Of a stretch of DNA of 64,000 nt, positions 10,201-36,308 are shown in pieces. The notes beneath the pieces are model-generated. The model had not been told where the DNA came from and searched no databases. It worked only from the letters and a program-made list of their open reading frames with translations. The position numbers and the translations under genes were made by a program. Source of the DNA: Candidatus Multivoradales bacterium (GTDB lineage: Bacteria; Acidobacteriota; Thermoanaerobaculia; Multivoradales; J023); contig CBDFLE010000006.1 in NCBI GenBank assembly GCA_965248925.1, positions 832,001 through 896,000 on the forward strand. The letters are read 5' to 3'. Positions within the stretch are counted from its first letter, which is position 1. Each line of letters begins with the position of its first letter.

Positions 10201-10249
10201 GCTCGATCATGCCTCGGCACCGAAAAAAGCGGACAGTTTTGGGTCCGCA
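9572..10249. repeat. Three identical 21-bp palindromic motifs GCGGACAGTTTTGGGTCCGCA
   Basis: Copies at 9572-9592, 9674-9694 and 10229-10249; arms GCGGAC/GTCCGC around an 8-nt spacer. Confidence 0.9.
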
Positions 10250-16100: not shown

Positions 16101-16600
16101 TGCCACTGGAAGGCGAGGTTGGCGGGAGCGACGATGAGGATGCGCTCGGCGAGACCGCGCAGCTGCAGCTCGCGGATGAGGAGTCCCGCCATGATGGTCT
16201 TGCCTGCGCCCGCGTCATCGGCGAGCAGAAAGCGGACCCTGGCGAGCTTCAACAGATGGTCGTAAACAGCCTCGAGTTGGTGAGGAAGAGGATCGACCCT
16301 GGAAATCGACAGACCAAAGTAGGGGTCGAATTCCCAAGCAATTCCGAGGGCAAATGCCTGTAGGCCGAGACGCAGAAGCCTACCGTCGCCATCGTAGCCA
16401 AATCCCGGCTGGTAAATGGAAAGGGAGGCGAGATCCTCCGCTGTCAGCTTGACTTTGCGAAAAAGCTCAGTCCGGGTACCAACGAGGCCAGCCATCCAGG
16501 AACCATCGGCACACTCGCGCACGGTCTCTACTCGCATCGGTTCGCTGAATAGGGCCCCTTCGAGGATCTGGGATTCCTGGAGAAAGCAAGCAATACTCAT
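13166..16600 (-). CDS. SNF2-family helicase with C-terminal DUF3883-like nuclease domain
   Basis: LLADDAGAGKT, IVDEAH, LTATPH, ATEAAGEGINLQ, WNPNRLEQRMGRIHRYGQ; C-terminal GYDITS...RLIEVKG. Confidence 0.9.
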   Translation of the reverse strand: MSIACFLQESQILEGALFSEPMRVETVRECADGSWMAGLVGTRTELFRKVKLTAEDLASLSIYQPGFGYDGDGRLLRLGLQAFALGIAWEFDPYFGLSISRVDPLPHQLEAVYDHLLKLARVRFLLADDAGAGKTIMAGLLIRELQLRGLAERILIVAPANLAFQWQRELKEKFDEKFLVLKGSDLRDQFGVNLWIEQKKVITSLDLAKRDDVLPGLRQVHWDLVIVDEAHRMSARDATHKSLRYKLGELLRDTSDHYLLLTATPHKGDPVNFTLFLQLLDRDAYADVRSIREAMSRQRAPFYLRRTKEAMVYFPERGDDGTWEARKIFTRRIPHTVAFTIDGEEFELYREITRFVKRQSARAAAQSDDPRARAVGFLMALYQRRLASSTRAMRRSLENRAKRLDKGLKEAQSLASTAAPDLPDWEEIEEMEDAEREQLERLLEAVTLAGNADQVHQEIAELRELAEEAEGVEQSGAEAKLVKLRALLESEGFFDHPDRRLLLFTEFKDTLYYLVENLESWGFRVGVIHGGMKPGSRDQPGTRIFTEQQFREGEIQVLVATEAAGEGINLQCCNILFNYDIPWNPNRLEQRMGRIHRYGQLEDCLIFNFVATNTIEGRVLRRLLDKLQEIRDALDDDSVFNVVGEVLPASHVERVLRDYYAGKLGDEDLEDRLLKDVDESRFRAICQSALEGLAAKKLNLEMLVERRARAQERRLVPESIARFIREAAEFVPLNLKPIESLPHTFEPSRTPGVLRRYEREEDWKLPELANHYPRCSTDRETADEHHLEWVTPGHPLFESIRRHTRACAMEPFAHGACFHSLSHDEPARIDFYRARVVDGLGRIVHENLFAVELCDNGEPELREPSALGNFSPAEAPAELPSIAAAADPVDWLQENALTPFLEETRAERLNEVECIAEHVELSLTELLQRTDDEIGRAASEVEEGKQGAEGRLVKAENRHAELLSRRERRRQELGRQRALSLQAVERLTCVLVLPHPERESSEVKNLRPNLETEAVAMSVVIEHERDRGCQVKDVSAKNLGYDITSLDTRSGEIRLIEVKGLAAATGTILWSPNEKRVAEDRRDCYWLYVVTSCATEPTLQTPILDPIQYDWHEVRKVQHYYLKVDAMTQPMEVCEDRSTYGDGG

Positions 16601-16783
16601 CCAGAGTCTTCTTCTATCTTACTGCTATTCATGTACTCTTTCCGCGGAAGCTGAATAGGGTTCTTCGTACTCCAGCGCTGCAACAAGATCTGCGAGTCTC
16701 ATCTTACTGGAAACGCCAAGGATTCGATCTCGCGCTCCTGGGTCGGCCGTCGTCACCACCGTCTCCTCCACCACACCTCCACT

Positions 16784-17419
16784 GAAATCGACGGCAAAAA
16801 GCACGAGCCGATGGAAATGCTGGTAATCGACACTCCCGAAGAGCACATCGGCGTGCTGACCCAGAAGCTCGGACCACGCAAAGGCAAGATGCTGAAAATG
16901 GCCAGCTATGGCTCGGGCCGAGTGCGGCTCGAATTCCGGGTACCATCGCGGGGCCTGATCGGCTTCCGCACCGAGTTCCTCACCGACACCCGCGGCACCG
17001 GCATCATGAACCACCGCTTCGACGGCTGGGAGCCCTGGCAGGGAGACATCCCCCACCGCTCCACCGGCTCGCTGGTCGCTGACCGCGCTGGCAAGACCAC
17101 CTCCTACGCGATCGAAAACCTCCAGCCCCGCGGCACCCTGCTGGTCGGTCCCACCACCGAAGTCTACGAAGGCATGATCGTCGGCGAGCACTCCCGTTCC
17201 AACGACCTCGATGTCAACATCACCAAAGAAAAGCGGCTGAGCAACATGCGCTCCTCCACTTCCGACATCTACGAACGCCTGGTCCCCCACCGCCGCTTAA
17301 GCCTCGAACAGGCCCTGGAGATGATCCGCCAAGACGAAGCGGTCGAGGTGACGCCGAAGAGCTTCCGCCTGCGCAAGAAGCTGCTGCGAGCGGTGGATCG
17401 CAAGCGCAAGAATCGCTAA
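16784..17419 (+). pseudogene. typA: 3' fragment of translational GTPase TypA/BipA
   Basis: [11 protein letters not shown]...[26 protein letters not shown]...[19 protein letters not shown]...LSLEQALE...[12 protein letters not shown]; the G domain is absent upstream. Confidence 0.85.
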
Positions 17420-18486: not shown

Positions 18487-21400
18487 TCAGTCCACTTCGA
18501 GGCGTAGCAGGTCGTTGGCCGCGACCGCCAGGCGACTGGCGATCTCTCCCACCCGAAGGGTGTACTCGCCCTCGGGCAGCCCGCCGATCACCAGCGGCAG
18601 CTCGGGACTCAACCAGGCTCCCACGCCGATGCGTTGGCGGAGAAGGGAGAGGTTCCAGCCGTCTGCAGAGATCAACTCCACCCAACCCTCCAGCTGCCGC
18701 GCTTCAAGCTTGACCGCTCCAGTCTCGCCAGACTCAAGATACAGCTGGCGAGTGCTGTCCAGATCCTCCCAGGCCCCTAGCACCCAACCACCATCGTCCA
18801 CCGCAGCCGCTCGCAAGCGCCGCGGATAGGGCGGCCGAAGCTCGACCCGAGCGACCCCAGCGGAGTCCAAGGTCAGGCGACGACTCTGGTGGTCGTCCCG
18901 CTCGAGAAAAACGAAAGCACCGGCAGCCGGCCCGCCATCTTGTCGGCCGACACGGATTTCCACCACTTCCCGGGCTTCTTCGGCCAGCACCAAGTACACC
19001 GGCTCACGGTCTTCGGGGGCCACCACCACGACTTCGCTACTGCGCGCTCCTGCAAGGGCGAAGAGCTGCTGGACGCCCATCTCAAGACCGGTCAGGGTGA
19101 AGGCTCCGGCAGCGTCGGTGCGCGCCACCGCGATACCCCCCACCGTCTGCACTCGCGCCCCAGGCACCGGCTGGTCGGCGCTATCCAGCACCACCCCCGC
19201 GATCCTGCGGCCAGGAAAATTCAACCGCACCGCATGCACAGCTACCGCCGGCAGCTCGACCCTCTGCGGGGCGCTGACCGCCCCGGATTCGAGCCATAGC
19301 ACGCTCCAGGTACCAGGCCGCAGACCCTCGCTGAAGAACTCTCCCGCGCCGTCGAGACTCACCTCCACCTGCGGCCGGCCAGCGCCGTAAATCTGCTGCG
19401 ACCGCGCTCCGAGCGCCGACCGGCGATGATTGATCAGCCCATGTACCGCGGTGTCCTCAGCACTCTGCCACAGCAGCCTGCCGCCGCTGGCGGGCTCGCC
19501 CCCGACGGTCACCGAGCCGGACACCCGCAGGGGCGATTGCTGACAATCTACCTCGCTCAATCCGGCCTCGGGGACCTCGACCTGCTGCTCGCAGAGCAGT
19601 TTGCGATCGAGCAAGACCGAGATGTTGGCCAGCCCCGGCGGCACATGCAGAAACTCAGCCTGGCCATCGACCACGGTGGCCGACAGCATGTCCATCTCCA
19701 TCCACCGGCGCCGCAGATCTAGACGCACGGTCGCACCATTGGCGACATCCTCGGCAAAGACCAGCACCCTGCTGCCGGCCTGCAAGTAGATCTCTCCCAG
19801 ATCAAGCAGCGACTCTTCGGTGTCGACCGTCAGGTGGCGACGGGCCAGGCCTGGAGCGTCGATGCGTAGCAGGGTTGGCTGCCGCGGCAGGCCGGTGAAC
19901 TCGAACTCACCCGTGGCGCCGCTCTGCGCCTGCAGCAGATCCCCCTGAGCCCAGGCGACCAGCGCCCCCTGCTCCCCCAAGCGCGGCGCCCACACCCTGG
20001 CGCCAGTGATCGCCGAGCCGTCAGTTTGGCGCAACAGCCGGCCCCGAACTTCGACGCCCTGCGGCGCCAGCAAGTCACCGAGGTCGCGAAGCTCCCCGCG
20101 GCGGCCGGATTGCAGGTGAACCGCCAGCTCGCGGGTTCTCAAGGAGCGCAACAGCAGGCGGCTCGGCAGGCCGGGCTGCAAGTCGAGTTCGAAACGCCCA
20201 TCAGATTGCAAATCGTAATCTTGATAGTGATGGCCATGCTCCACCCGCACGCTGCCGGCAGCGACCGCCACCCCCTCTGCATCCAGCAATCTGCCGGTGA
20301 CTCCAAAAGCCCGTTGCAACACCACCACCGGCGGCTCTTTGGGAAAGGGCGGCTGCACGGTGGGGCTGGCTGCGAGATGGCCGGCGGCGCTGACCTCCAG
20401 ACGCAGGGGCTCGCTGGCGGAGACTCCGGCGAGCCGCGCCTGGCCGGCGGCGTCAGTGGTGGCCGTACGTCCGCCCCCAGCGCTGAGGGCCGCGCCCGCC
20501 ACCGCCCGGCCCCTATCGTCGCGCACGATCAGCACCAGCGTTGCAGCGGATTGCAGCGTCACCTCGCCCAGGTCGGCGCTGCCCGCCGCCAGGTCGAGAC
20601 GAGTCTGGAAGGGCGCGAAGCCATCGCGGTGAGCCAACAGTCCGGCTTCACCAGCGGGCAAGCCGGCCAAGGACCAGGCCCCCGAGGGATCGCTGGTAGT
20701 CCCCCGTCCGGCCAAGGCAGCATCGCCCGCCAGCCACACCTCTGCCTTGACCTCCACCCCCTCCAGGCCCTCACCCGCCGGGTCTAGAAATCGGCCGCGG
20801 ACCGTGGCTCCGACTGGCAGCTGGACCCTCGGTGGTAAGGCTACCACCCGGCCGTCCCACGCCACCGAGGCGTGCTGCCGCTCACTGAGGATCAACTTCA
20901 GCGAGGCATGGTCCGGCAACGCTTGCAGCTCGACCGCACCCCCGGGCCCGGCGACCCACTGCGCCCACACTCCGCCACCCTTGCCAGTGCTGGCAACCGC
21001 CAATGCGGTCACCGCCGAGCTGGCCAACGGCTGGCGATCCGCACCGACAATCTGAAGGAAGTGATTTTCAGCCACCTCCGCCACGAGCACCGCCCGCTGT
21101 TGCCTCGGCCGTACATCCAGCCACCAAGATCCCTGATCCTCGCCCACCAGCCGCAGTCGCCAGGGGCGACCGTCACGAGGCAAACGAAGCACCGAACGAC
21201 CGCCCAATTGCCAGGCCGGCAACAGCGCTTCCGGCACCTGCTGCCACATCTCCAGCGGCGCCGCTCGCAGACTCAGCGCCGCCTCACCCTGCTGCGCCCC
21301 ACGGACCCGTACTTCCAGGGTCTGCGCCGCCGGGGCAGTCTCCCAAGCAGCCAGCTCTGCCGGCGCCAAGCGCACCGGCGGCGAGGCCTCGCTCCACAGC

Positions 21401-21567
21401 CAGACTTGCTCGAGCCCCGCCGGCAACTCACTCGGCAAGGTGTCGACCGCTTCAAAACGACCCTGCGAGAACACCAGGACCGCCGCCGCTTGCAGATCGC
21501 TGCAAGGGAGCAAGAACAAAGTCAAAGCCAAGGCGATGGGAAAGGTTACTTTGACAGATCCGTTCAT
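18487..21567 (-). CDS. Large secreted protein with carboxypeptidase-regulatory-like (beta-sandwich) repeats
   Basis: Signal peptide; repeated VxGrvlDxxGxpvaGAxV...TDaaGxF motifs. Confidence 0.75.
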   Translation of the reverse strand: MNGSVKVTFPIALALTLFLLPCSDLQAAAVLVFSQGRFEAVDTLPSELPAGLEQVWLWSEASPPVRLAPAELAAWETAPAAQTLEVRVRGAQQGEAALSLRAAPLEMWQQVPEALLPAWQLGGRSVLRLPRDGRPWRLRLVGEDQGSWWLDVRPRQQRAVLVAEVAENHFLQIVGADRQPLASSAVTALAVASTGKGGGVWAQWVAGPGGAVELQALPDHASLKLILSERQHASVAWDGRVVALPPRVQLPVGATVRGRFLDPAGEGLEGVEVKAEVWLAGDAALAGRGTTSDPSGAWSLAGLPAGEAGLLAHRDGFAPFQTRLDLAAGSADLGEVTLQSAATLVLIVRDDRGRAVAGAALSAGGGRTATTDAAGQARLAGVSASEPLRLEVSAAGHLAASPTVQPPFPKEPPVVVLQRAFGVTGRLLDAEGVAVAAGSVRVEHGHHYQDYDLQSDGRFELDLQPGLPSRLLLRSLRTRELAVHLQSGRRGELRDLGDLLAPQGVEVRGRLLRQTDGSAITGARVWAPRLGEQGALVAWAQGDLLQAQSGATGEFEFTGLPRQPTLLRIDAPGLARRHLTVDTEESLLDLGEIYLQAGSRVLVFAEDVANGATVRLDLRRRWMEMDMLSATVVDGQAEFLHVPPGLANISVLLDRKLLCEQQVEVPEAGLSEVDCQQSPLRVSGSVTVGGEPASGGRLLWQSAEDTAVHGLINHRRSALGARSQQIYGAGRPQVEVSLDGAGEFFSEGLRPGTWSVLWLESGAVSAPQRVELPAVAVHAVRLNFPGRRIAGVVLDSADQPVPGARVQTVGGIAVARTDAAGAFTLTGLEMGVQQLFALAGARSSEVVVVAPEDREPVYLVLAEEAREVVEIRVGRQDGGPAAGAFVFLERDDHQSRRLTLDSAGVARVELRPPYPRRLRAAAVDDGGWVLGAWEDLDSTRQLYLESGETGAVKLEARQLEGWVELISADGWNLSLLRQRIGVGAWLSPELPLVIGGLPEGEYTLRVGEIASRLAVAANDLLRLEVD

Positions 21568-22649
21568 AGCAGGAACTCCGCAAACACCAGCTTCGAGGGC
21601 GTGGCTTTAGTCTTATGAGGCAAGGTGGCACCACTTTGGTAGAGCAGAAATACCGCTTCCTTGCCTCTGAGATCGGCATGCAAATGCCCATGGTCGGAAG
21701 GAAAAGTCAGTGGCAGATCGAGCCACAGCGGTGGCTTACCGCGGTAGAGCACCACCAGCCGCCAAGACACCACCCCGGCGCCTGAGACCCGGCGAGTGAT
21801 CAGGCCGATCTCGCCACCGACCGGCAAGATCTCATCAACGATCTCAAATTGGTTGATCCAAGCACGACGGGCGAGCACGTCTCGCGACAGGAGGTCCCTC
21901 TTCTCTTCCGAGTGGTCGCAGCGCATGCCAATACCCAAGGGCTCGGTCTCCCAGGTGTAGACCTGCTTGGCGGATGCGTCGAGCAGAAAGACATCAGGTT
22001 CCGCGCCGGGCACCAGCACCAGGGAGCCATCGGCGAGGAAACGCAAGACTCCCAGCTCACTGACACGGCAGAAATCAAAGGCCCGTGCGCCAGGGCCGGT
22101 CTGCGAAAATTGAATTGGGCGAAACTCGACCGACTCTCGCCCCAGCCTGGCCAGCCAGCCGATGCCGCCAGTGGGTGCCAGCTGGCGGTCGTCATCACGG
22201 CGGATACCCAGCACTGCCAGCCGATCTCCGAACAGGGCGATGTCCTCAACAAACTCGAAGTACTGCTTATCCGCCAACCCCTCAGCCTGACCGTGACGCC
22301 GCCAACCGACCTCGTAGATCAAAGAGGCTACCCCCAAGTAGCTGTCAGAACGGGCCAGGAGACTGGTCATGACCACCTCCCCTGATCCGTGCCCAGTACG
22401 GCTGAGAATCCTCGGCGCCGCCTCGTCAAGAGAATAGTTCACTGCCCCAAACGGAGAGACTGCGAGAAAAACCGCCTTTCCCTCAGCCCAGCGGACATCC
22501 TGTGCCGCTGCAATATCGCCTCTGAGTAGCAACTCCGACTGGACTTTGACCTCCAGGCTTTGGAGGACGGTCGGGGCCAGCATTAGAGCCGAGAACTGAA
22601 CGAACGCCAGGACTGCCCGCCAGCACTCGCGTATACCGAGGATTCCCAC
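21564..22649 (-). CDS. Secreted hypothetical protein, probably beta-propeller
   Basis: N-terminal hydrophobic signal; beta-strand-rich pattern; overlaps the next gene. Confidence 0.6.
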   Translation of the reverse strand: MGILGIRECWRAVLAFVQFSALMLAPTVLQSLEVKVQSELLLRGDIAAAQDVRWAEGKAVFLAVSPFGAVNYSLDEAAPRILSRTGHGSGEVVMTSLLARSDSYLGVASLIYEVGWRRHGQAEGLADKQYFEFVEDIALFGDRLAVLGIRRDDDRQLAPTGGIGWLARLGRESVEFRPIQFSQTGPGARAFDFCRVSELGVLRFLADGSLVLVPGAEPDVFLLDASAKQVYTWETEPLGIGMRCDHSEEKRDLLSRDVLARRAWINQFEIVDEILPVGGEIGLITRRVSGAGVVSWRLVVLYRGKPPLWLDLPLTFPSDHGHLHADLRGKEAVFLLYQSGATLPHKTKATPSKLVFAEFLL

Positions 22650-22661
22650 CTTCAGCCCCCG

Positions 22662-22883
22662 TCAGGGCCTGCAGCTAGATCCGTTGGTGACGCAGTAGCC
22701 GCCGGTCTTGTTCTCGACACACTCCGTACAGCCGCCACCACTGCCCCCGCACCAGTAACTACCTCCAGCGCTCACGATCCCGGAGTTGGAATAAGTCTCA
22801 CAGCCAGCGCCTTCAAGGGTCAGGGCTCCAGTCACCAAGATCACCGCGGACAGTCCGGATAGAAGTACTTTTCTTGCGCGCAT
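22662..22883 (-). CDS. Small secreted Cys/Gly-rich peptide (73 aa, 6 Cys)
   Basis: GGAGG RBS; signal peptide MRARKVLLSGLSAVILVTGALTLEGAG, then CETYSNSGIVSAGGSYWCGGSGGGCTECVENKTGGYCVTNGSSCRP. Confidence 0.7.
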   Translation of the reverse strand: MRARKVLLSGLSAVILVTGALTLEGAGCETYSNSGIVSAGGSYWCGGSGGGCTECVENKTGGYCVTNGSSCRP

Positions 22884-23450
22884 AATCCAGCCTCCAAAAC
22901 AAAAGAGTTTTCTGCTTAGTGTTTCTCAAACAGGGCCAAGGAACGACAAGAGGCGGGCAAGGCGGCGCACGGCATTCGGGCAGGAGCGGACGAGTATTAT
23001 TTCGCAAGCTGCCTCCAACAACAATAGAGAGTCCAGCGTGGCTGCTCAAGGACCGACAAAAACCATTTGGTAACAAGAGAGCCGGACCAAGCGCCACTCG
23101 GCCCCCTCCTTGCCGAGGGCAGCCAGCACTTCTTGCATGCGCCGATCAAAAACTCTCAAAAAACGATTGCAACGTACCACAAGCGGCAGAGAGAGTCCAG
23201 GCCGGATCCGTGGCAGCGGAGGCAGCGCCGGGGTGGTGCCACTCATTTCTCGCCGATCAGCCGCCCGCACCCGATGCAGCGGTTGAGTCCATCCCTAATC
23301 GAGGCGTGCTCGCCGTCATTCAGCGCGCCAGACAGGCGCCCATAGTAGTTGCTCATCGCCGAAACGCAGCCGGCGGTCCGTCCCAGCCGCTCGGCGATGA
23401 GCCTGTCCGGTGCCGTACTGCCAAGGAGGTGCCAGTCATTTCATCGGCCG

Positions 23451-24677
23451 TCATTTCTTCGGGGCATGCTCGCCGCCATCAGGACGCCACAGAGGCACCT
23501 CATAGTAGTGGCGCATCGTCCTGATGTTGCCGACTGGCCGTCCCAGCCGCTCGGCGATGACCCGGTCCGGTGCCGTACCGAGCAGGGCGATCTCCTCGGG
23601 CTTCCACTTGCGCTGCTGACGCACGGCCGGAATCCCCATGGCGGACCGTATTGCGCCAACCCTTGTCTTCGACAAACCGACATCCTGGGCGATCTCTTTG
23701 TCGGTATCGCGGCCGAGCCGAGCCACCAGCTGAGGCGTCCAGCGCAGCTCCGGCTCGGAAGCCGCTGTGATGCCCTGCTCTGCTCGAAGTTTGGCGATGG
23801 TGGGCCTCGACAGACCGGTACGTGCGCGAACCTCTTTGCTCGGCAGCCCGAGCAACGCGTTCAGCTCGGGAGTTCTCACCACGGACAGCTTGGCATGCGG
23901 CTTGGCAGCGATGCCGAGTTCCTGGCGTTTCTTGCCAGCGCTCGCTGGCGACATGCCGTGCCGGTGCGCGATCGCGGTATCGCTCTCCTTGCCGAGCCGC
24001 TCGGTCATCTCGTCGCTCCAGACGATCGGTGGCCCCTTGGGGTTGTGTGCCTCGATGCCGAATTGCTGACGCTTGATGGTTACCGACGACGCGGCGATCC
24101 CAAATCGCTTGGCCGCCGCCCGATCTGTCATCGTGCCGAGCAGAGCCTTTCGTTTCTCTGTCCAACGAAAGCGGTTGGGGGATGAGTGCGGCGGAGGGTT
24201 GCAAGCAGCGATGCCAAGCACAATCCGCTTGCGAGTGACCGTCTCTTTGCACACGCCGAGCTGCTCAGCGACAGCGCGGTCACTGTCGGCTCCCAAGCTG
24301 GCGATCATCTCGTCGGTCCACACCACGTCAGGGCGCCGTGGGCGAAAGGCGGATATCCCGCGTCGAATCCGCTCGCGACGGACCTTGGTGCCGCTGATCC
24401 CGAATTTTTTGCCGAGCGTCTCGTCAGGGGCCTCGCCGAGCAGAGCAACCAGCCGCGCGGGACAACGAAACCGCTTCCTGGCAATTGGCTGGCGCTCGAT
24501 CTCCACCCGCCTGGCGGGCGCCGGCGGCCGGTCTTGCGCCGGCTGTTCGCGCATCCGTAGGAGGCCCTCGGTGAGGGAACGATGGCGCCCTGGTTCTGTG
24601 CGGCGGCGTGCTCTCGGAGGTGTGGAGGACTTGGACATCGTGGCAATCCGAAGGAGAGTAGAGAGAGAGGGTGACAA
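23451..24677 (-). CDS. Tandem HTH-repeat protein (7 repeats of ~45-50 aa)
   Basis: Repeat consensus WTxExxALLGxxxDxxIAxxLGxSxxTVxxKRxxLGIxA; start codon uncertain. Confidence 0.75.
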   Translation of the reverse strand: MSPSLSTLLRIATMSKSSTPPRARRRTEPGRHRSLTEGLLRMREQPAQDRPPAPARRVEIERQPIARKRFRCPARLVALLGEAPDETLGKKFGISGTKVRRERIRRGISAFRPRRPDVVWTDEMIASLGADSDRAVAEQLGVCKETVTRKRIVLGIAACNPPPHSSPNRFRWTEKRKALLGTMTDRAAAKRFGIAASSVTIKRQQFGIEAHNPKGPPIVWSDEMTERLGKESDTAIAHRHGMSPASAGKKRQELGIAAKPHAKLSVVRTPELNALLGLPSKEVRARTGLSRPTIAKLRAEQGITAASEPELRWTPQLVARLGRDTDKEIAQDVGLSKTRVGAIRSAMGIPAVRQQRKWKPEEIALLGTAPDRVIAERLGRPVGNIRTMRHYYEVPLWRPDGGEHAPKK

Positions 24678-24842: not shown

Positions 24843-25736
24843 ATGGGCGGAGACTCTAGCACTGGCGGCACGATTCTGGTGACCGGTGCCGCCGGCAAGA
24901 CAGGCCGGGCGGTGCTGCGAGCATTGCGCGACTGCGAAGCACCGGCTCGGGCACTGGTGCGGCGGCGCGAGCAGGAGGAGGTGGCGCGAGCCGCCGGCGC
25001 CAGGGACGTGATGCGCGGGGATCTCCGCGATCCGCAGGCGATGGTGCAGGCTACCGCTGGTGCGGCGGCGGTGTACCACATCGCTCCCAACATGAGCCCC
25101 GACGAAATCGAGATCGGTCGCACCGTTCTTGCCGCCGCGCACCGGGCGGGAGTGCGCCGGTTCGTCTTCCACTCGGTCCTCCACCCGCAGACCGAGGCCA
25201 TGTCACACCACTGGCGCAAGCTCCGGGTCGAGGAGCAGCTGCTCGAGACGGGCTTGCCCTTCACCATCTTGCAACCGGCCGCCTACATGCAGAACGTCCT
25301 GGCCCAGCGGCAGCGCCTGCTCGAGGAAGGCAGCTACTCGGTTCCCTACGACAGAGCGACCCGGATCGCCATGGTGGACTTGGTGGACGTGGCCGAGGTG
25401 GCGGCCAAGGTGCTGACGGAGGACGGCCACCTCGGCGCCACCTACGAGCTTTGCGCCGAGAATCTGACCCAGGACGAAGTCGCGGCCCAGCTGGGAGAGG
25501 CGCTCGGCCGCCCGATTCGCGCCGTCACTGTCCCCCTCGAGCGGTGGCGAGCGCAAGCGCGATCCTCCGGGCTGGACGAAGCGCGGTGTGAGGCCCTGCT
25601 CACCATGTTCCGCTTCTACCAGCGTCACGGTTTCACTGGCAACCGCAACGTGCTGCGCTGGCTGCTGGGCCGCGAGCCCACGAGCTTCCGCGATTTCGCC
25701 TCGAGGGCTGCTCAGTCCCGGACACCTGTGGGATGA
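24843..25736 (+). CDS. NmrA-family NAD(P)-binding protein
   Basis: ILVTGAAGKTGRAV, TILQPAAYMQN, VDLVDVAEVAAKVL. Confidence 0.88.
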   Translation: MGGDSSTGGTILVTGAAGKTGRAVLRALRDCEAPARALVRRREQEEVARAAGARDVMRGDLRDPQAMVQATAGAAAVYHIAPNMSPDEIEIGRTVLAAAHRAGVRRFVFHSVLHPQTEAMSHHWRKLRVEEQLLETGLPFTILQPAAYMQNVLAQRQRLLEEGSYSVPYDRATRIAMVDLVDVAEVAAKVLTEDGHLGATYELCAENLTQDEVAAQLGEALGRPIRAVTVPLERWRAQARSSGLDEARCEALLTMFRFYQRHGFTGNRNVLRWLLGREPTSFRDFASRAAQSRTPVG

Positions 25737-25820: not shown

Positions 25821-26582
25821 CTAGCTCGGAAGATAAGCCCGCATCTGCCCACTATCCACTAGGCTCAACCATTGCTCCGCCAACCGCCTGGCGAAGGTCT
25901 GATCTTCGATCAGCACCCCTACTTCGAGGTTGCGGTAGAGGCCGCGGTCGGTGAAGTTGGCGGAGCTGACCAGCACCCAGCGATGGTCGACGACGGCGCA
26001 TTTGGCATGCAGGCTGGCAAGGGCGCCGGGGGCGATGGTGCGGGGGTCGTAGTAGAGCGCCGGGCGGGGCAGGCCGAAGGGCCAGTTGTCGGCGTAGAAG
26101 CGTTCGCAGGCCTGGCTGGCGTGGCGTTGGGGATCGCTACCTCGGGGGGCACGTTCGATATCGAGGAAGAAAGTGGCCTCGACCCCTCTCTCGACCATCA
26201 CCCGATGCAGCGGCCGCAACAGCTCGGCGCCGTGGTCGAAGCGGTAGCCGCCGACCAACACCTGCTGCTCGGCCTTGCTGAACAGCTCGCGCACCACCAC
26301 CGCGCTGTCGCGGGCCGGGCGCAGACCGGCTTCAGGGCCGGTCCACACCAGCTCGAGGTGGGAGCTGGGGTGATGGCGGCGTTCGGCAATCACCGCCTCG
26401 AGGGCCGGCAAGGCCTGTTCCGCGGCGAGAGCCTCGAGGGGACCCAGGCGATCGGCCAGCTGGGCCAGGCCCAGGGTGGTCAGCGAGGCGGCGTCGAGTT
26501 GGCGGATCTTGCCGTGCCGCAGGGCTCGCCGCAGCAGCTCGAGGTCGGCGGTGGCGACACCGGTCAGACCGAGATCAGGCAC
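25821..26582 (-). CDS. drmC: DISARM phospholipase D-like nuclease DrmC
   Basis: ELVWTGP; single HKD motif LHAKCAVVD...SSANFT...NLEVG; last gene of the DISARM operon. Confidence 0.88.
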   Translation of the reverse strand: MPDLGLTGVATADLELLRRALRHGKIRQLDAASLTTLGLAQLADRLGPLEALAAEQALPALEAVIAERRHHPSSHLELVWTGPEAGLRPARDSAVVVRELFSKAEQQVLVGGYRFDHGAELLRPLHRVMVERGVEATFFLDIERAPRGSDPQRHASQACERFYADNWPFGLPRPALYYDPRTIAPGALASLHAKCAVVDHRWVLVSSANFTDRGLYRNLEVGVLIEDQTFARRLAEQWLSLVDSGQMRAYLPS

Positions 26583-28431
26583 CTAGGTCGGCCACCGAGA
26601 AGTAGGCCAGGTCGGCAGCCTGGCCCAGGGTGGGCACCAGCAGAGCGCGGTCGAGGAAGCGGTTGAAGCGCTCGCAGGAGGGCTCGGCGATGAACAGGCA
26701 GCCGTGGCAGGCAGCCCCTTCAAGGAAGCGTTCGGCGTAGTCGCCATCGGGGGAGTGGCTACCGCAGACCGGGTCGTTGGCGCACAGCGAGCCCAGGTCG
26801 AGCGCCCGCCTGAGGTGCTGGACAATCCGCCGGCCTTCCTCGACCAATCCTCCCAGAGTGCCCTCGGTGCCAGCCGAACCGGTCGACAGCAAGACCCCGG
26901 CCATCGGCCGCTCGCCGTCGTGAGCGGCGCAGTAGATGCGCTCGCGGATCGCCGCCGAGGGGTAGCCGCAGCGCAGTGAGATGGCGTTGATCAGCAGGTG
27001 GGAGAGGGAGTGCAGCAGGTAGAAACGGACGCCGGGATAGACTAGGTGGGAATCCGTGAGACCCCTGCTCCAGGCGGCAAAGCCGGCTTGCAGCTGGCGA
27101 TCTCGCTCGATCACCGCCGGCCGCTGCTCCCAGGCGTACAAGCGCTCCTCATCGAGCTCGATCAGCACCCCCTCGCCGCGGATCTCGCTAGCCGGCAGCC
27201 AGTCGGTGCTCAGGCCGAGGCGCTGGGATTGCACGCCGAGGTCGAACTCGCCTTCGAGGTCAGGGGTCACCGGCTCCAGGCGGGTGAACCCCACCTGCAC
27301 CCGCACCTCGCGCAGCTTGGGCGCCAGCACCAGGCTGGCAAGCCCTTCCGGCAAGCCCGCCGCAGGTAGAAAGCGACGGGCGAAGAAGTCCACTCCGGGA
27401 GGCGGCAACTCGCCGGGACGCTCATCGGGCTGGGCGCGGAAATGCTCGATCTCGGCGCTGCGCAAGGCCAGGCGTGGCATCGCCTCGCCACGACGAATGG
27501 CGGCAATGGTGGCCAGCACCTCCTGATCGGAACCAGCGACCGCCGCCCTGACCTTGGGCACCCTGCGCAAGGCCGGCAGATCCTCGGCGGTGGCCTCGGA
27601 CAGCACGTCCCACACCCCGCGGACCCGCTCTTCCAGCTGCCGCGCCGGATCGGGGATCGACAGGGCGCTGACGATCTGGGCAAAGTAGGCATTCGAGGCG
27701 CTGCGCACCAACAGTCGCTGGCGTTGATCGCAGGTCTCACGCCCCTCGACGCCGAGCCACGGACGGTGGCCGGGGCAGGGCAAGGCGAGATCGTGGATCA
27801 TTGCTCGCGACAGCCGCTGGCCGGCGCTGCAAGCGTCACAGACCACCCGGATCTCCGAGAAGTCGCCGGTGACGCCTTCGAGCAGCCGCAGCCGGGGCGC
27901 GGAACAGTGAGTCTTGGACTCGAGATGAGCGAAGCGGATCCAGGGAAAGTCTTGCAGGTGGCCATCGCTACAGGCGCTGAGGAAGCGCACCGGCACGGTC
28001 TCCGACGGCTTGTCCCGGCCGCAGTCGTGGACGTAGCGCTGGCGCTTCAGCAGCAGGGCATGCTTGCCGACCAGGGCGCGACAGCGGGGATTCTGGCAGA
28101 CGAACCAATTCGGCAGCTGCAAGGCCTGGACGCCATTCCACCGACCCGGCTCGCCATCGAGGCAGGCCGGCGGCAGGCGAAAGGGCTGATCTTCCGCCAA
28201 GTGGATCGGCGGCTCAATCTGGGCCAGGCGCTCCACCAGCTTGTCGCGCAGCCGGGGCTCGGCGACCGTCGGCAGAGGGCGATTGCCAGCATAGCTCCAG
28301 AAGTCCAAGCCACCGACCACCACCGCGTGGTCGAGCAGGTCCACCAACGAGCCAGGGCCATAGGTGCCGACCATCTGGCTACGGCGGATCTCGCCCTGGG
28401 GTGGCTCGCTGCGGCGCCGTCGGCGGCTCAT
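26575..28431 (-). CDS. drmB: DISARM DUF1998 protein DrmB
   Basis: GEIRRSQMVGTYGPGSLVD, LLHSLSHLLI, GTLGGL, CANDPVC, ACHGCLFIAEPSCE; ATGA overlap with drmA. Confidence 0.9.
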   Translation of the reverse strand: MSRRRRRSEPPQGEIRRSQMVGTYGPGSLVDLLDHAVVVGGLDFWSYAGNRPLPTVAEPRLRDKLVERLAQIEPPIHLAEDQPFRLPPACLDGEPGRWNGVQALQLPNWFVCQNPRCRALVGKHALLLKRQRYVHDCGRDKPSETVPVRFLSACSDGHLQDFPWIRFAHLESKTHCSAPRLRLLEGVTGDFSEIRVVCDACSAGQRLSRAMIHDLALPCPGHRPWLGVEGRETCDQRQRLLVRSASNAYFAQIVSALSIPDPARQLEERVRGVWDVLSEATAEDLPALRRVPKVRAAVAGSDQEVLATIAAIRRGEAMPRLALRSAEIEHFRAQPDERPGELPPPGVDFFARRFLPAAGLPEGLASLVLAPKLREVRVQVGFTRLEPVTPDLEGEFDLGVQSQRLGLSTDWLPASEIRGEGVLIELDEERLYAWEQRPAVIERDRQLQAGFAAWSRGLTDSHLVYPGVRFYLLHSLSHLLINAISLRCGYPSAAIRERIYCAAHDGERPMAGVLLSTGSAGTEGTLGGLVEEGRRIVQHLRRALDLGSLCANDPVCGSHSPDGDYAERFLEGAACHGCLFIAEPSCERFNRFLDRALLVPTLGQAADLAYFSVADLGA

Positions 28432-31400
28432 CGCCCACCCCCGCCGAGGGGCTGGCGCTCCAGCCACAGGTGGACGGTGGGCTCGACATCGCGCATCGAA
28501 GTCGGCGCCGCGAAGCGAGCCTCCTCAGGGCCGCGATCGGCCGCCGTCTCGTCGAGGACGGTGAAGAGCAGCGGCGGTCCGCCGGAACGGTCGAGATCAA
28601 AGGGGGAGTAGCGCCGGCCACCGGCGGCGCCGCGCGCCTGCTCCATCACCAGCTGCCAGCTGTCGAGCAGCGCCTTGCCGATCTGCTCCAAGTCCCCGGT
28701 CCGCTGGCGCAGCGCCGCCTGGTCGAGGGAGCGGTGGCGACTGGCCCGCTCCACCAGCACCGCCACCGCCGCTTCGCCGAGCTGGCGGTGATCTTCGAGC
28801 TTCGTAACCGCCGGCCCGGGGGTCATCAGCGGATCGAGATGCCTCACCAGGGCAACCAGCGCGCCGGCCAGGCCGCGCTCCAGCGCCGGGCCGGAGAAGG
28901 GGGTCAGGCTCGACGCCTCGACATTGCGGTAGAAGCTCTCGTGGTAGGCGGTGAAGTGCTCGTAGTGGGAGCGATCGCGGGGCCGGTAGACGTTGAAGCA
29001 AGTCACCACCAACCCCGGTCTATCCTCCGGTTGGCGGCCCACCCGGCTCGACGCCTGGATGTACTCCGCGGTGGTCTTGGGCTGGCCCGCCACCACCATC
29101 AGGCCGAGGCGGCTGATGTCCACCCCCACCGAGATCATATTCGAGGCCAGCAGCACATCGACGTGATCGCGCTCGGCGTGGCCCCGGTCGAGCCGCGCCT
29201 TGGCCTCGGCGATGCGGCCGGTCGCCTCGCGGCTGGTCAGCTCTACCGGCTCGGCGGCCAGCCGGCGATCGCGCCACCAGCACCGCGGATCGGCGCCCTC
29301 GGGATGGCGACCGGTCTGCCGCCGGCAGCGCGACACCACCTCGTCTTCCACCAGCCGGCGCATGCCGCCGAGCTCGCGCAAGCTATTGAAATAGCCCACC
29401 AGAGTCATGTAGGCGTCGGCGGTGCTGTCACCACCGCGCTCCTGCCACAGCCGCTGGGCGGCGGTCAGCAAGATCACGTAGGTGCGCAGCAGCAGAGCCT
29501 TCATCGGCCGCCCAGGCGCCGCCAGACCGATGTAGAGCCGGCCCGGACTCTGGCGATCGACGGTAGCGAAGAAGGTCTCGCCGTCGTCGATCCCCGGCGG
29601 CGGAAAGATCGCCGGCGGCGCGGTGCGGCCAAACAGCGCCCGCACCTGCTCGGTGGCCTGGCGGACGGTGGCGGTAGCGGCGATCACCTTCGGCAAATAG
29701 GAAGAGCCCTCGCCGTCGCTGCTCCGGCAGAGAGCCTCGACGACGGTCTCGTAAAGCCCCACCATGGTGCCCAGGGGACCCGAGATCAGGTGCAGCTCGT
29801 CTTGCACAATCAGCTCCGGCGGCCGCAGGCCCTCCGGTAGCTGTCGGGCGTCGCGGGGCGGCTGATCGAGGGGGCCGTAGAACAAGCGTCCGTGTCGCCA
29901 GCTGGCGCGGCCGAAGAGCAGACCGGTTTCGCCACGCCAAGGCAGCATCGCCAGCTTGTCGACCGTAGCCACCAGGAAGCAGGGCAGCTCGCGGTAGATC
30001 TGCTCGTCGACAAAGAGCACCGGCAGGCCCTCGGGGCTCTCGTCGACATGGAAGGGGCAGTCGTCGGCACCGCAGTGGACGTGTACCTCGGTGGGCTGCT
30101 GCTGCGGATGCACGCGCAAGCTGCCCGGTTCGAAAGGGGTCTTGCACCAGGGGCATTCACTGAGCGGGAAGGGCGAGCTGGCGGTGCGACCCCGGCTGTT
30201 CTTGTAGGCAGTGATCTGCCGCGCCACTTCCTTGATGGTGTTGGCCGTGGCGCTCCTGCCCACCCACAGGCCGATCGCAAAACGGGTCTGGCCGAGGCGC
30301 GCTGGCTGCTCGCGGCGCAGCAGCTCGAGGGCACAGATCAAGGTAGCGGCGCGGCCCAACTGATCGAGGGTTAGCAGGCGCAGGGTGTAGCGCAGCAAGA
30401 TGGCGACCCCATCGCCACCGTCGAGACGCCCAGTACCGCGCAGGCGGCGCAACAGCAGAGTGACGGCAATTACCCCCAGATAGGCTTCGGTCTTGCCACC
30501 ACCGGTGGGGAAATAGATCAGCTCCACCCGCTGGCGGTCGGGGTGGGCAGGGTCGGCGATCGAGGGCAGATTGAGCAGCAGGAAGGCGAGCTGGAAGAGG
30601 CGCCACTCAGGCACCATGCCGGGGCGGGCCGATCGCGCCTGCAGTGCCATCGCCCGGTTCATCCAGCCAAAGGCCAGGCGCGCCTCGGCATCGCCGGCCA
30701 GCAGCTCGATCCCCTGGCGAACACGCTGCGAGGCGCGCTGGGCGTCGGCCATCAGCTGATCACGGGTTCGGCGGCGGTTATCGCTGCCCGGATCGACTGT
30801 CGCCTGCTCGGCGATCCAGCTCTCGTAGGCCGCCGGCAGCGCTTCCAAGCCACGGCGCAAAGCCTCGGGATCGTCCAGCTCGGCGAGTTCCTCCATGCCG
30901 ATGGTCAGTCCCTGCACCTGGACCGACTGCACCCGCCGGACCTCAGCGCGGGGGATCCAGGTGGTGCGCACCCGCCGCACCGGCTGACCCGCTGGCACCT
31001 CCGGCACCGCCACCGCCACACCGTGGCCGACAGCGACCTCAGTGCAGTGGCGGAACTGCAAATCGGCGATCAACTCGTCGGCATCCTCGGCGCTCTCGCC
31101 GCGCCAATTGGGCCGCGGTACGAACCCGTCGCCACACTCCAGCTCGAGGCTGACCTGGAACATGTAGCGCTCGTCGGCACGCCCCTGCTCCCCTTTGCCG
31201 CGGCGGTTGACCACGAAGAGGGACAGGGCCCGCGTGCCGGCAGCCAGACCCGGCGCCGCGGCGACCTCCAGCCGCCCTTGCAACCAGACACCGGCCGCCT
31301 CGGGCAGCTCGATACCGCGCGCCAACTGCGGCCGATCGAGGGGCAGGTCGAGGCTCAGCGGCAGCCGCGGCTGGCGACGCCAGAAACGCCGCTGGCGGCT

Positions 31401-31805
31401 CTCGCCGGTGGTCGGGTCCGAGTCCTCATGGTCTTCAGCCAAGTAGTCGGCCCAGCGCAAGGTGACGCGGACTTGGTCGTCACTCCCCTCCTGCCTCGCC
31501 GGCAGCAGCACCGACAAGCCGAGCGAAGCCGGCAGCAGATGACGCCGCTTCGGCCCGGCGTCGTCACTGCCAGCGTCCTCGTCGTCCAGGTCCGAGCCGG
31601 CGGCAGCGCCATCATCCAGCGGCTCGTTCTCGACCTCCCGCGCTTCCATCGGCGCCAGAAAACCGGTCAAATACCAGCGCGATGGCGGCAGGGGCAGCAG
31701 CTCGTCGCAGCGGTCGGGGCCGGTGGGGAGGTCGTAGGGACCGATCAGGTCGGCTTCGAGGGCGCGGACCAAGTACTCGCGGCTTTGAGTCAAATCGTTC
31801 GGCAT
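28428..31805 (-). CDS. drmA: DISARM helicase DrmA
   Basis: FPTGGGKTEAYLG, RYTLRLLT, QDELHLISGPLG, ATAT, SNMISVGVDISRLG, YIQASSRVGR. Confidence 0.92.
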   Translation of the reverse strand: MPNDLTQSREYLVRALEADLIGPYDLPTGPDRCDELLPLPPSRWYLTGFLAPMEAREVENEPLDDGAAAGSDLDDEDAGSDDAGPKRRHLLPASLGLSVLLPARQEGSDDQVRVTLRWADYLAEDHEDSDPTTGESRQRRFWRRQPRLPLSLDLPLDRPQLARGIELPEAAGVWLQGRLEVAAAPGLAAGTRALSLFVVNRRGKGEQGRADERYMFQVSLELECGDGFVPRPNWRGESAEDADELIADLQFRHCTEVAVGHGVAVAVPEVPAGQPVRRVRTTWIPRAEVRRVQSVQVQGLTIGMEELAELDDPEALRRGLEALPAAYESWIAEQATVDPGSDNRRRTRDQLMADAQRASQRVRQGIELLAGDAEARLAFGWMNRAMALQARSARPGMVPEWRLFQLAFLLLNLPSIADPAHPDRQRVELIYFPTGGGKTEAYLGVIAVTLLLRRLRGTGRLDGGDGVAILLRYTLRLLTLDQLGRAATLICALELLRREQPARLGQTRFAIGLWVGRSATANTIKEVARQITAYKNSRGRTASSPFPLSECPWCKTPFEPGSLRVHPQQQPTEVHVHCGADDCPFHVDESPEGLPVLFVDEQIYRELPCFLVATVDKLAMLPWRGETGLLFGRASWRHGRLFYGPLDQPPRDARQLPEGLRPPELIVQDELHLISGPLGTMVGLYETVVEALCRSSDGEGSSYLPKVIAATATVRQATEQVRALFGRTAPPAIFPPPGIDDGETFFATVDRQSPGRLYIGLAAPGRPMKALLLRTYVILLTAAQRLWQERGGDSTADAYMTLVGYFNSLRELGGMRRLVEDEVVSRCRRQTGRHPEGADPRCWWRDRRLAAEPVELTSREATGRIAEAKARLDRGHAERDHVDVLLASNMISVGVDISRLGLMVVAGQPKTTAEYIQASSRVGRQPEDRPGLVVTCFNVYRPRDRSHYEHFTAYHESFYRNVEASSLTPFSGPALERGLAGALVALVRHLDPLMTPGPAVTKLEDHRQLGEAAVAVLVERASRHRSLDQAALRQRTGDLEQIGKALLDSWQLVMEQARGAAGGRRYSPFDLDRSGGPPLLFTVLDETAADRGPEEARFAAPTSMRDVEPTVHLWLERQPLGGGGR

Positions 31806-31880
31806 AATCTTCTGCGGTCAACTGAGTCTTTTACACTCTTTTGCGAGGCAGCAAGGCAGGAGTCCCTCGGGCTTCTCACA

Positions 31881-32132
31881 TCACTCGAGGCCGAGCTGCA
31901 ATTTGGCTACCTTGTGGGAGATGTGCAACCCTTTCTTGGCTTCACGGCGAGCCGCTGCAAGGCCTCCGTCAAAGTCGTCGTCATCAGACTCGTCATCGGC
32001 CGGAGCCGACCGCAGCGCGCGGAGAACCGGGTCCGCGGTAGTCCGCAGAGCCTCCAGGACACGCTGCACCTCCGGCATTTTGTCCTCCGGCAGATCGTCG
32101 ACGACTCGATGAATCGCTTCTCGTGCGGTCAT
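31881..32132 (-). CDS. Small antitoxin-like protein (83 aa) inside DISARM
   Basis: Close paralog of 18185-18436, same length. Confidence 0.55.
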   Translation of the reverse strand: MTAREAIHRVVDDLPEDKMPEVQRVLEALRTTADPVLRALRSAPADDESDDDDFDGGLAAARREAKKGLHISHKVAKLQLGLE

Positions 32133-32304
32133 ACTGGGTCTAGTCTACAACGTGAACACCCTCAGCTATGGGGGTGCGTTCGCTGGCGCCGGATTGCGAC
32201 GGCCTCGGCCATTCGCCAGCGGGACATCATCGCTGAGTCATCGCACCCACCCCCGGCGGGTGCAACCAGTCCAGCTTCGGCTCCTGAAGTACTGACTTGT
32301 CTGC

Positions 32305-36285: not shown

Positions 36286-36308
36286 TCGTCTAGCTTCCCT
36301 CGGCCGGC

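Follow-up and report, generated by a model that had tools for sequence, protein, structure and literature searches.

The DNA-binding domain (DBD) of GcrA places its α2-α3 helix-turn-helix (HTH) unit in the major groove as a monomer, contacts all seven consensus positions and prefers sites carrying N6-methyladenine (m6A) (PMC5887438). Free-standing GIY-YIG homing endonucleases possess a modular, extended DNA-binding region for a long target (PMC1564403). A 2026 preprint presents fast-evolving poly-winged HTH (poly-wHTH) arrays of at least six copies, some of them effector-less, and proposes that they coat invader DNA (10.64898/2026.10.19.760177). Here, we analysed a gene for a tandem HTH array encoded on the minus strand (23451..24554) of a 64,000-nucleotide (nt) stretch from Candidatus Multivoradales bacterium (assembly GCA_965248925.1, contig CBDFLE010000006.1, positions 832,001 to 896,000), hereafter the window, in whose positions all coordinates are given unless stated otherwise. 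An earlier note, written from the sequence, had singled out this gene as a modular DNA reader beside a DISARM defence system. In our view, its product is probably a stand-alone, strongly basic seven-module HTH protein that occupies long DNA, a member of a mobile family and not a DISARM component.

The array gene and its seven modules

The open reading frame (ORF) at 23451-24677 (−) comprises 408 amino acids (aa) when counted from TTG 24677, with a further ATG at 24638 in the ORF list. The probable start is ATG 24554, giving 367 aa; a database protein of this length, 100% identical to the translated frame, begins at the same ATG (M42 of the frame), which is also the approximate point from which homologs align. 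The stop codon occupies 23451-23453. The GC content at third codon positions was 0.74 against a window GC of 0.64, and the frame is therefore a real coding sequence. The protein has an isoelectric point (pI) of 10.9 and consists of a disordered N-terminus of ~ 30 residues, seven modules connected by Pro- and Arg-rich linkers of 7-14 residues, and a short C-terminal tail. No enzymatic, ligand-binding, sensor, oligomerisation or effector domain was seen with Pfam or in the AlphaFold2 (AF2) model, and the GIY-YIG domain was not found with Pfam. NCBIfam gave no match near any cut-off, and a PDB sequence search with the whole protein returned a single chance-level row. Among sequencing runs, four that contain the sequence were listed, all from one study and sample and none of RNA.

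The seven repeats align without gaps over 45 residues (ORF residues 71-115, 119-163, 171-215, 219-263, 267-311, 312-356 and 357-401), with periods of 48, 52, 48, 48, 45 and 45 aa and pairwise identities of 9-19 in 45 positions (20-42%). A hidden Markov model (HMM) of the repeat, built from 80 repeats of other genomes and leaving out the window protein, its ortholog and its own-genome paralog, recovered all seven domains at 19.8-48.4 bits; one of 200 protein shuffles reached at least 10 bits (best 10.2). The seven repeats of ~ 45-50 aa described in the earlier note are thereby borne out, and its seven helix strings (SGTKVRRE, CKETVTRK, AASSVTIK, SPASAGKK, SRPTIAKL, SKTRVGAI and PVGNIRTM) all lie at repeat positions 25-32. 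Tandem Repeats Finder reported no rows between 23000 and 25000, because the repeats are too diverged at the DNA level and the array is visible in the protein only.

All modules lie on the minus strand, and their AF2 helices are numbered here as in the 367-aa protein. In R1 (24333..24467; 36.3 bits; helices 33-38, 44-51, 55-64), a Cys replaces the leading Trp, and helix 3 bears an E-R-x-R-R-G-I signature that is conserved family-wide in the first module. R2 (24189..24323; helices 81-89, 92-99, 103-113) scored 48.4 bits. R3 (24033..24167; 45.3 bits) is the sole module that passed the Pfam HTH_23 model (PF13384), with 28.9 bits against a cut-off of 24.6 over residues 183-210. R4 (23889..24023; helices 181-187, 192-199, 203-213) reached 46.9 bits. 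R5 (23745..23879; 19.8 bits; helices 229-235, 239-246, 250-260) is degenerate: it lacks the Trp and the LG-x3-D element and has L-R at helix-3 positions 31-32, oddities that are kept in co-linear homologs. R6 (23610..23744) provided the best GcrA-DBD match of the model (PDB chain 5yiu_A to model residues 265-308), and R7 (23475..23609; 41.2 bits) is followed by the C-terminal tail.

Predicted fold of the modules

AF2 modelling of the whole protein with 13 homologs produced three helices per repeat, with predicted local distance difference test (pLDDT) values of 80-90 inside the repeats. The predicted template modelling (pTM) score of the whole model was 0.37, and the mutual arrangement of the modules is therefore undefined, as in beads on a string. 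A single repeat, R6, folded with 103 repeats reached a pLDDT of 88.3, with helices at positions 4-10, 15-22 and 26-35. Neither the model of the whole protein nor that of the single repeat contained a strand after helix 3 that could form a wing. Each repeat is thus predicted to be a tri-helical HTH module, and the modelling upholds the HTH fold that had been supposed from the sequence.

In a search of 48,161 PDB representative chains, the GcrA DBD (5yiu_A) was the top match both for the whole model (Z 5.9, root-mean-square deviation (rmsd) 1.8 Å, 43 residues) and for the single repeat (Z 4.8, rmsd 1.5 Å, 38 residues), with 21-24% identity to the modules. The rows that followed were overwhelmingly DNA-binding HTH domains, namely resolvase, Mos1/Tc3 transposase, Reb1/Myb, homeodomain, LuxR-type, sigma region 4 and Cbp1. 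Foldseek returned no row at E ≤ 0.001 for the whole model, in which the relative module orientation is unreliable, and single modules were used in its place.

Sequence models gave little. HTH_23 matched 7 of the 103 modules from this and related genomes at E ≤ 0.01, a generic and marginal membership. The GcrA model (PF07750) had no match at E ≤ 10 for the protein or at E ≤ 0.01 for the 103 modules, and a six-frame search of the whole genome yielded none at E ≤ 0.01, with a positive Caulobacter control; the C-terminal sigma-70-interacting domain of GcrA was not found in the array protein either. Pfam Myb matched neither the protein nor any of the 103 modules, and NUMOD1 was not among the matches of the protein, the modules or two phage enzymes that carry them (see below). 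A comparison of the repeat profile with PDB sequences gave weak rows only, the best being a summed E of 1.9e-5 to the (HhH)2 repeats of topoisomerase V; no single stretch of it was significant (best single-stretch E 14), and the structural searches ranked HTH domains first. The summed match to the Methanopyrus enzyme involves the first two helices of the module, '..E..LLG..D..IA..LG'.

The array family and its variable positions

An exhaustive search collected 3002 cluster representatives at E ≤ 1e-3, 1062 at 1e-10 and 218 at 1e-30, which are labelled at source as 'hypothetical protein' or generic HTH. The family is large, has no name of its own and is not an oddity of this locus. In literature full text on tandem, multi- or poly-HTH arrays we found no description of it; two text matches, PMC12931631 and 10.1101/2025.10.09.681413, concerned TPR/Sel1 and PglZ and were set aside as irrelevant. 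The 168 proteins retrieved contain 3-19 modules (mode 6-7) and have a median pI of 11.3, with values above 9 in 166 of them. A non-repeat stretch of at least 100 aa occurred in eight of the 168, and one of these stretches held a recognised domain (DUF4379 zinc fingers). A search for longer fused forms brought up one protein, composed of HTH modules only, which is weak evidence.

Among 76 proteins of 320-410 aa, 71 were co-linear with the query over at least 85% of its length. In these homologs, the scaffold columns W2, L10, G11, D15, A19, G23, V29, K32, R33, L36, G37 and I38 are 80-100% conserved in most modules, and positions 25-28, 30-31 and 34-35 show mostly ~ 2-3.9 bits in every module. 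R, S, T, A, K and Q abound at these eight hypervariable positions, which by the predicted helices belong to the turn and to the outward-facing side of helix 3. Each module has one conserved Trp. The variation in module number and helix residues that the earlier note had proposed to look for among homologs is thus present. Best-match labelling of 167 proteins did not recover positional orthology of the modules beyond the closest ortholog; the conserved layout is therefore limited to linker lengths, the R1 signature and the degenerate R5.

Possible selection on the helix-3 face

A single unsaturated pair was available for comparing the proportions of non-synonymous (pN) and synonymous (pS) differences, i.e. 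tandem paralogs of one genome (G002) with 80% aa identity. At the eight variable positions, pN was 0.235 against a pS of 0.105 there and 0.11 over all sites, and pN elsewhere was 0.06; 29.5 of the 59.5 non-synonymous changes fell in 20% of the positions. The Fisher p was 0.003 when all synonymous sites were used, and one in 20,000 random 8-position sets scored as high. Gene conversion between these tandem copies is possible.

Older pairs had saturated dS (~ 1 or more). Their dN/dS at variable sites was 0.68 for the window protein and its ortholog, which is 62% identical, and 0.47 for another pair, compared with 0.06 and 0.11 in the scaffold; at a dS of about 1, the 62% orthologs disagree in 36 of 56 variable-site residues. 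No further close pairs were found: searches with the window protein gave one weak locus and with the G002 paralog two distant metagenome loci, and a plasmid blastn with a five-module Pseudomonas gene returned identical copies or unrelated short matches, useless for dN/dS.

Duplication at the 3′ end

Beyond the stop codon, where a decayed eighth repeat had been proposed, we observed a dead copy of R7 and the tail in a frame different from that of the gene (23243..23440, −; 65 codons from stop to stop). This frame has no usable start before codon 29, and aligns with R7 plus the non-repeat C-terminal tail of the array protein; in a genome search it matched residues 320-364 with E 2.2e-4 and 51% identity. 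The underlying DNA is a tandem duplication in a 160-nt register (23299..23578; distal copy 23299-23418, proximal copy 23459-23578), formed by two pairs of direct repeats that are both spaced 160 nt apart, 23341-23418/23501-23578 (78 nt, 82%) and 23299-23319/23459-23479 (21 nt, 86%). The copies are 75-86% identical in DNA; by eye, the scaffold part agrees at 38 of 40 nt, whereas the helix-3 part is strongly diverged. A 20-mer occurs exactly at 23381 and 23541 and at no other place in the window with up to two mismatches, and two such matches arose in none of 100 shuffles. Given the similarity to R7 and the tail and the common 160-nt spacing, the proposed repeat represents the distal copy in a tandem duplication that spans the last module, the tail and the stop, and its frame differs because 160 is not a multiple of three. 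In other words, the out-of-frame copy marked by the 20-mer is real, but it is a 3′-end duplication including the tail and not a decayed in-frame repeat. Frameshifting or read-through into the copy was considered and rejected, as TGA at 23441-23443 closes its frame and the other frames soon stop.

The downstream copy is absent from the locus of the 62% ortholog, where tblastn with the 65-aa frame matched only the last module of the ortholog itself. In the alignment of homologs, the C-terminal modules are those that vary in number, so module-sized duplication at the 3′ end is the likely route by which arrays grow. Arrays would both lengthen and shorten there by module-sized tandem duplication, and the frame-shifted copy of R7 and the tail would be the trace of one event that took in the stop codon. 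Past the stop of this remnant, the segment at 23156-23242 (−) opens with a string, GTGGCACCACC, that by eye resembles the start of the remnant, CTGGCACCTCC; the same duplication may have left here another piece in a more advanced state of decay.

Distribution and mobile elements

A second intact array gene, encoding 371 aa with 40% identity, is present on another contig of the same genome; TAG is its normal stop. A divergent 196-aa ORF with three modules lies 338 nt from it and is transcribed divergently, and the two together occupy G000:C4:128468-130406 (8978-11021 of locus L016). Matches were found in 6 of 60 genomes of other relatives, and in none of 400 other genomes of a phylum sample at E ≤ 1e-10, with five candidates scored per genome. 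Genome G002 has 14 matched places; the contigs examined contain five or more array ORFs, which are spread over three contigs and include a tandem of three. At this tandem locus (L019 7814-12043, contig 82 of G002), the second and third genes are 80% identical, and their differences cluster on the helix-3 face; the three genes are succeeded, on the opposite strand, by a PIN-domain gene and a small partner ORF. The distribution of the family is patchy and mobile.

The neighbourhoods of ten homolog loci have nothing in common. The 62% ortholog adjoins TrbI, CagX, TrbL and TraG-type conjugation genes and a ParB_N gene, and other loci have Fic, PIN, TIR or RHS genes nearby, or ordinary metabolic genes. 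Of 62 near-array ORFs at the ten loci, two matched PADLOC at E ≤ 1e-10. Family matches were present in 84 plasmid records (64 from Pseudomonas and 10 from Bacillus), of which 46 are conjugative, with up to ten places in pQBR103. The 361-aa five-module gene mentioned above adjoins a Tn3-family transposase and an outer-membrane transport gene in Pseudomonas plasmid pPAMH19 (L026 6755-7840). Sixteen Pseudomonas and Stenotrophomonas plasmid records, this one included, contain it with at least 99% identity, and in 12 of them at least 80% of the gene is present. Its first ~ 110 nt are ~ 76% identical to the start of IS66-family transposase genes.

Ten phage records had family matches. In Vibrio phages 1.187.O and helene 12B3 (L028 and L029), a homing endonuclease of 333-346 aa has a GIY-YIG domain at residues 1-85, followed by 4-5 modules that match the repeat profile with E 8e-34 and 2e-39. 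The endonuclease gene is located immediately upstream of the gene for the terminase large subunit. The annotation of phage 1.187.O divides the terminase among three ORFs.

Genomic neighbourhood in the window

PADLOC identified a complete class 1 DISARM operon at 25821-39869 (−), with E from 5e-62 down to 0, comprising drmD (36309-39869), drmMI (32305-36462), drmA (28428-31805), drmB (26575-28467) and drmC (25821-26582), all on the minus strand. Its GC content is ~ 0.69-0.71 over much of its length, against 0.64 in the window. An NmrA-like gene on the opposite strand (24843-25736, +) separates drmC from the array gene, so the description of the latter as lying beside DISARM is only loosely true: the operon is near, but it is not adjacent. 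PADLOC assigned no family to the array protein, and a Pfam scan of 91 ORFs at the ten homolog loci (11-20 kb each) found none of the DISARM domains (MZB/DrmB, PLD, MmeI-type methylase, SNF2 helicase set). Because of the intervening gene, the absent PADLOC match and the lack of DISARM at all ten loci, the array gene is best read as an independent passenger of a variable region. A functional tie to DISARM is not supported by the PADLOC result, by the homolog loci or by the position of the 62% ortholog beside conjugation genes.

Three ORFs follow the array gene on the same strand (18487-22883, −). The first, separated by a gap of 567 nt, encodes 73 aa (22662-22883, −), hydrophobic at the N-terminus and rich in Cys and Gly at the other end; the others encode 361 aa without a Pfam match and 1026 aa with CarboxypepD_reg repeats. 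The flanking genes of the window do not recur at the ten homolog loci, save for a weak domain-level match of the 1026-aa protein (tblastn, E 4e-4), and the flanking intergenic DNA contains no repeats or iterons other than the gene-derived duplication. Farther away, a second restriction-like island (7807-17419) comprises a Transposase_29 gene (7807-10200), a methyltransferase-like DUF1156 ORF that spans only 580 aa (10285-12027), a YhcG PDDEXK nuclease (12024-13169) and a NOV_C-containing SNF2 helicase (13166-16600). At the edge of the island lie the C-terminal 202 aa of a TypA/BipA GTPase (16811-17419, +), and this gene looks truncated there.

Proposed mode of action and alternatives

In the mode of action that we propose, each module would place helix 3 in the major groove of DNA, as the monomeric GcrA DBD does over ~ 7 base pairs (bp), and the basic Pro/Arg linkers would follow the backbone or the minor groove. 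Several modules acting together would then read or cover a long DNA stretch, or else many sites. Lacking any enzymatic or ligand-binding domain, the protein would exert its effect through occupancy, for example by silencing, exclusion or marking of DNA. The scaffold residues W2, L10-G11, D15, A19, G23, V29, R33 and L36-G37-I38 would build the fold, and the eight turn and helix-3 positions would be free, or driven, to change, giving each family member a DNA preference of its own. We lean slightly towards sequence reading by multiple modules. A role in conflicts between mobile elements, or between an element and its host, is conceivable but doubtful. We think it unlikely, although worth stating, that the arrays are the bacterial and mobile-element counterpart of fast-evolving zinc-finger arrays, in which GcrA-like modules would each read several bp through ~ 8 diversifying residues, and duplication would add or drop modules, so as to track long targets of rival elements or homing sites.

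A number of observations weigh against the proposal of an array that occupies long DNA through sequence-reading modules. Binding to DNA is itself likely, yet it is deduced from the modelled fold, the charge and the relatives of the protein. Z values of 4.8-5.9 are in a range common for small helical domains, and, save for the marginal HTH_23 match of one module, membership in specific HTH families fails by sequence. Best-match labelling to R1-R7 found the order 1-2-3-4 in 8 of 167 proteins and the starting pair 1-2 in 41 of 167. The signal of positive selection rests on one paralog pair (56 codons), and its Fisher p was only 0.048 relative to the synonymous sites of the same codons. The tested sites were chosen from variability in the family, which inflates dN, although this alone cannot lift pN above pS. 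The dN/dS of the older pairs fits relaxed constraint just as well, and the hypervariability of the 'reading' residues among orthologs could be a sign that the protein recognises no specific target. Lastly, the association with mobile elements is qualitative, and several homolog loci lie among ordinary metabolic genes.

The main rival is a non-specific DNA-coating or architectural protein akin to nucleoid-associated ones, whose basic residues and linkers hold the backbone and whose helix-3 face is unconstrained. It agrees with the extreme pI across the family, with basic K32/R33 and Arg/Pro linkers that are conserved when the 'reading' positions are not, even between the 62% orthologs, and with the lack of a sensor, oligomerisation or effector domain and of a conserved neighbour pointing to a specific regulon. 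Pointing the same way are the backbone-binding repeats of topoisomerase V, to which the profile has a weak summed match (E 1.9e-5) with no stretch significant by itself. We nevertheless regard such a protein as rather unlikely, since relaxed constraint alone is insufficient for the excess of pN over pS at the variable face in the one unsaturated pair, the same module array serves homing endonucleases, whose targets must be long and defined, and the fold matches are sequence-reading HTH domains. A related alternative, in which the protein would be an anti-mobile-element 'poly-HTH' immunity factor that coats or silences invader DNA, would make the place of the gene in a defence island meaningful. 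The preprint proposes this very role for fast-evolving HTH arrays (10.64898/2026.10.19.760177), the array gene sits between DISARM and other restriction-like genes, and the diversifying signal at helix 3 and tandem paralog clusters fit as well, as do a SoFic-like divergent neighbour at one locus and PIN and TIR genes near two others. On the other side stand the 2 of 62 PADLOC matches among near-array ORFs and the absence of any for the protein itself, as well as the missing wing, whereas the domain of the preprint is a winged HTH. Moreover, many members are carried by plasmids, transposons and phages, where a function on the side of the element fits at least as well, and we hold the immunity role to be decidedly unlikely.

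Two further explanations start from the neighbouring genes. An ordinary transcription factor for the downstream 73-aa, 361-aa and 1026-aa CarboxypepD_reg genes would suit their common strand, the 567-nt gap that could hold a promoter, and the usual function of HTH proteins as regulators. Large CarboxypepD_reg or surface-type proteins are also encoded within 20 kb of several homologs, but such proteins may simply be common in genomes of this kind. With no tblastn match of the 73-aa and 361-aa proteins at ten homolog loci, only the weak one of the 1026-aa protein (E 4e-4), and no repeats or iterons in the flanking intergenic regions beyond the gene-derived duplication, local regulation is very unlikely. 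The array protein could also be a DISARM accessory or methylation reader that, like GcrA, recognises m6A, here deposited by DrmMI; the drmMI gene is 7.8 kb away, and the closest fold match prefers m6A sites (PMC5887438). Against this speak the intervening opposite-strand NmrA gene, DISARM-type Pfam domains at none of ten homolog loci, the conjugative-element context of the 62% ortholog, and a GcrA Pfam model that finds nothing in this genome at E ≤ 0.01, and together they make such a reader extremely improbable. Our preferred reading is, therefore, still the stand-alone array that occupies long DNA.

Implications

Should this reading hold, a widespread family without a name of its own, with thousands of sequence clusters, would build long DNA-binding surfaces from up to 19 HTH modules. 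It would travel on plasmids, transposons, conjugative elements and phages, with coupling to a nuclease already occurring in nature, and its recognition would put a name to common 'hypothetical proteins' of Pseudomonas megaplasmids and environmental genomes. The arrays would also offer a testable case of recognition-surface diversification in bacterial DNA-binding proteins and a candidate modular scaffold for DNA targeting. The natural nuclease fusion makes the DNA-reading rules of the family testable. On the less likely view of zinc-finger-like arrays, module-to-DNA rules, if they can be derived, e.g. from the phage GIY-YIG enzymes with their mappable targets, would allow the scaffold to be directed to new sites. 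The finding changes nothing for the DISARM locus, as the array gene is its neighbour and not its component.

Comparison with known systems

The earlier note had likened the protein to TALE and zinc-finger arrays. In common with TALE and C2H2 zinc fingers, it has a tandem array, a fixed scaffold, few variable putative contact residues and a module number that varies in the family, and the signal of positive selection at these residues is reminiscent of KRAB zinc-finger and PRDM9 arrays. However, TALE repeats are near-identical units of 33-35 aa differing at two residues, whereas the array modules measure 45-52 aa, are 20-42% identical and vary at ~ 8 positions; unlike C2H2 fingers, they have no Cys/His ligands. 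A one-module-one-base code is not expected, because one module would cover several bp. The putative modular reader is thus supported in part, through its predicted HTH modules, variable helix-3 face and changing module number, but the strict TALE code fails, and the analogy to fast-evolving zinc-finger arrays is retained as a hypothesis.

GcrA from Caulobacter (PDB 5yiu) shares with the modules a compact domain of ~ 45 aa and a leading Trp, and is the best structural match of a single module. Unlike the array protein, which has seven modules and nothing else, GcrA combines one DBD with a sigma-70-interacting domain, and the Pfam GcrA model does not match the array. Myb/SANT arrays (c-Myb R1R2R3, Reb1, SNAPC4) are likewise tandem tri-helical modules with a leading Trp, each reading a few bp in the major groove. 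Myb-type fold matches reached Z 3.6-4.6, and Foldseek, run with the whole model, had SNAPc and Reb1 in its top rows. The arrays differ from them in the absence of a Pfam Myb match, in one conserved Trp per module instead of three, in their bacterial and mobile-element carriers and in having up to 19 modules.

Cbp1 from Sulfolobus (PDB 2lvs) we take to be a small basic CRISPR repeat-binding protein with three imperfect HTH repeats, flexible linkers and no other domain. It is archaeal and has three modules, not seven, and its match was weak (Z 4.1, rmsd 10.1 Å over 89 residues; profile E 0.2). Free-standing GIY-YIG homing endonucleases bind DNA through modular HTH and NUMOD-type modules, and the two Vibrio-phage enzymes carry 4-5 copies of the same module after the GIY-YIG domain; the window protein, in contrast, has no nuclease domain, and NUMOD1 was not among the matches. 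I-TevI differs again in using a zinc finger, a minor-groove helix and a single HTH. The poly-wHTH arrays of the preprint, compared here by description, resemble ours in having at least six fast-evolving HTH in one polypeptide or in tandem genes, some of them effector-less, and a proposed long and diverging target (10.64898/2026.10.19.760177). They are, however, described as winged and, in most systems, as linked to ParA/Tox-RelA, HEPN, TIR, HKD or cyclase effectors. No effector gene of that type lies directly downstream of the array gene, and the homolog loci show no effector neighbour consistently; a TIR gene is located 3.6 kb from one homolog, and a PIN gene adjoins another. Our tests assign the array protein to none of the GcrA, Myb, NUMOD1, TALE and zinc-finger families, nor to DISARM. 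By analogy, we suggest that it works like Myb-type arrays, Cbp1 and the modular DNA-binding regions of homing endonucleases.

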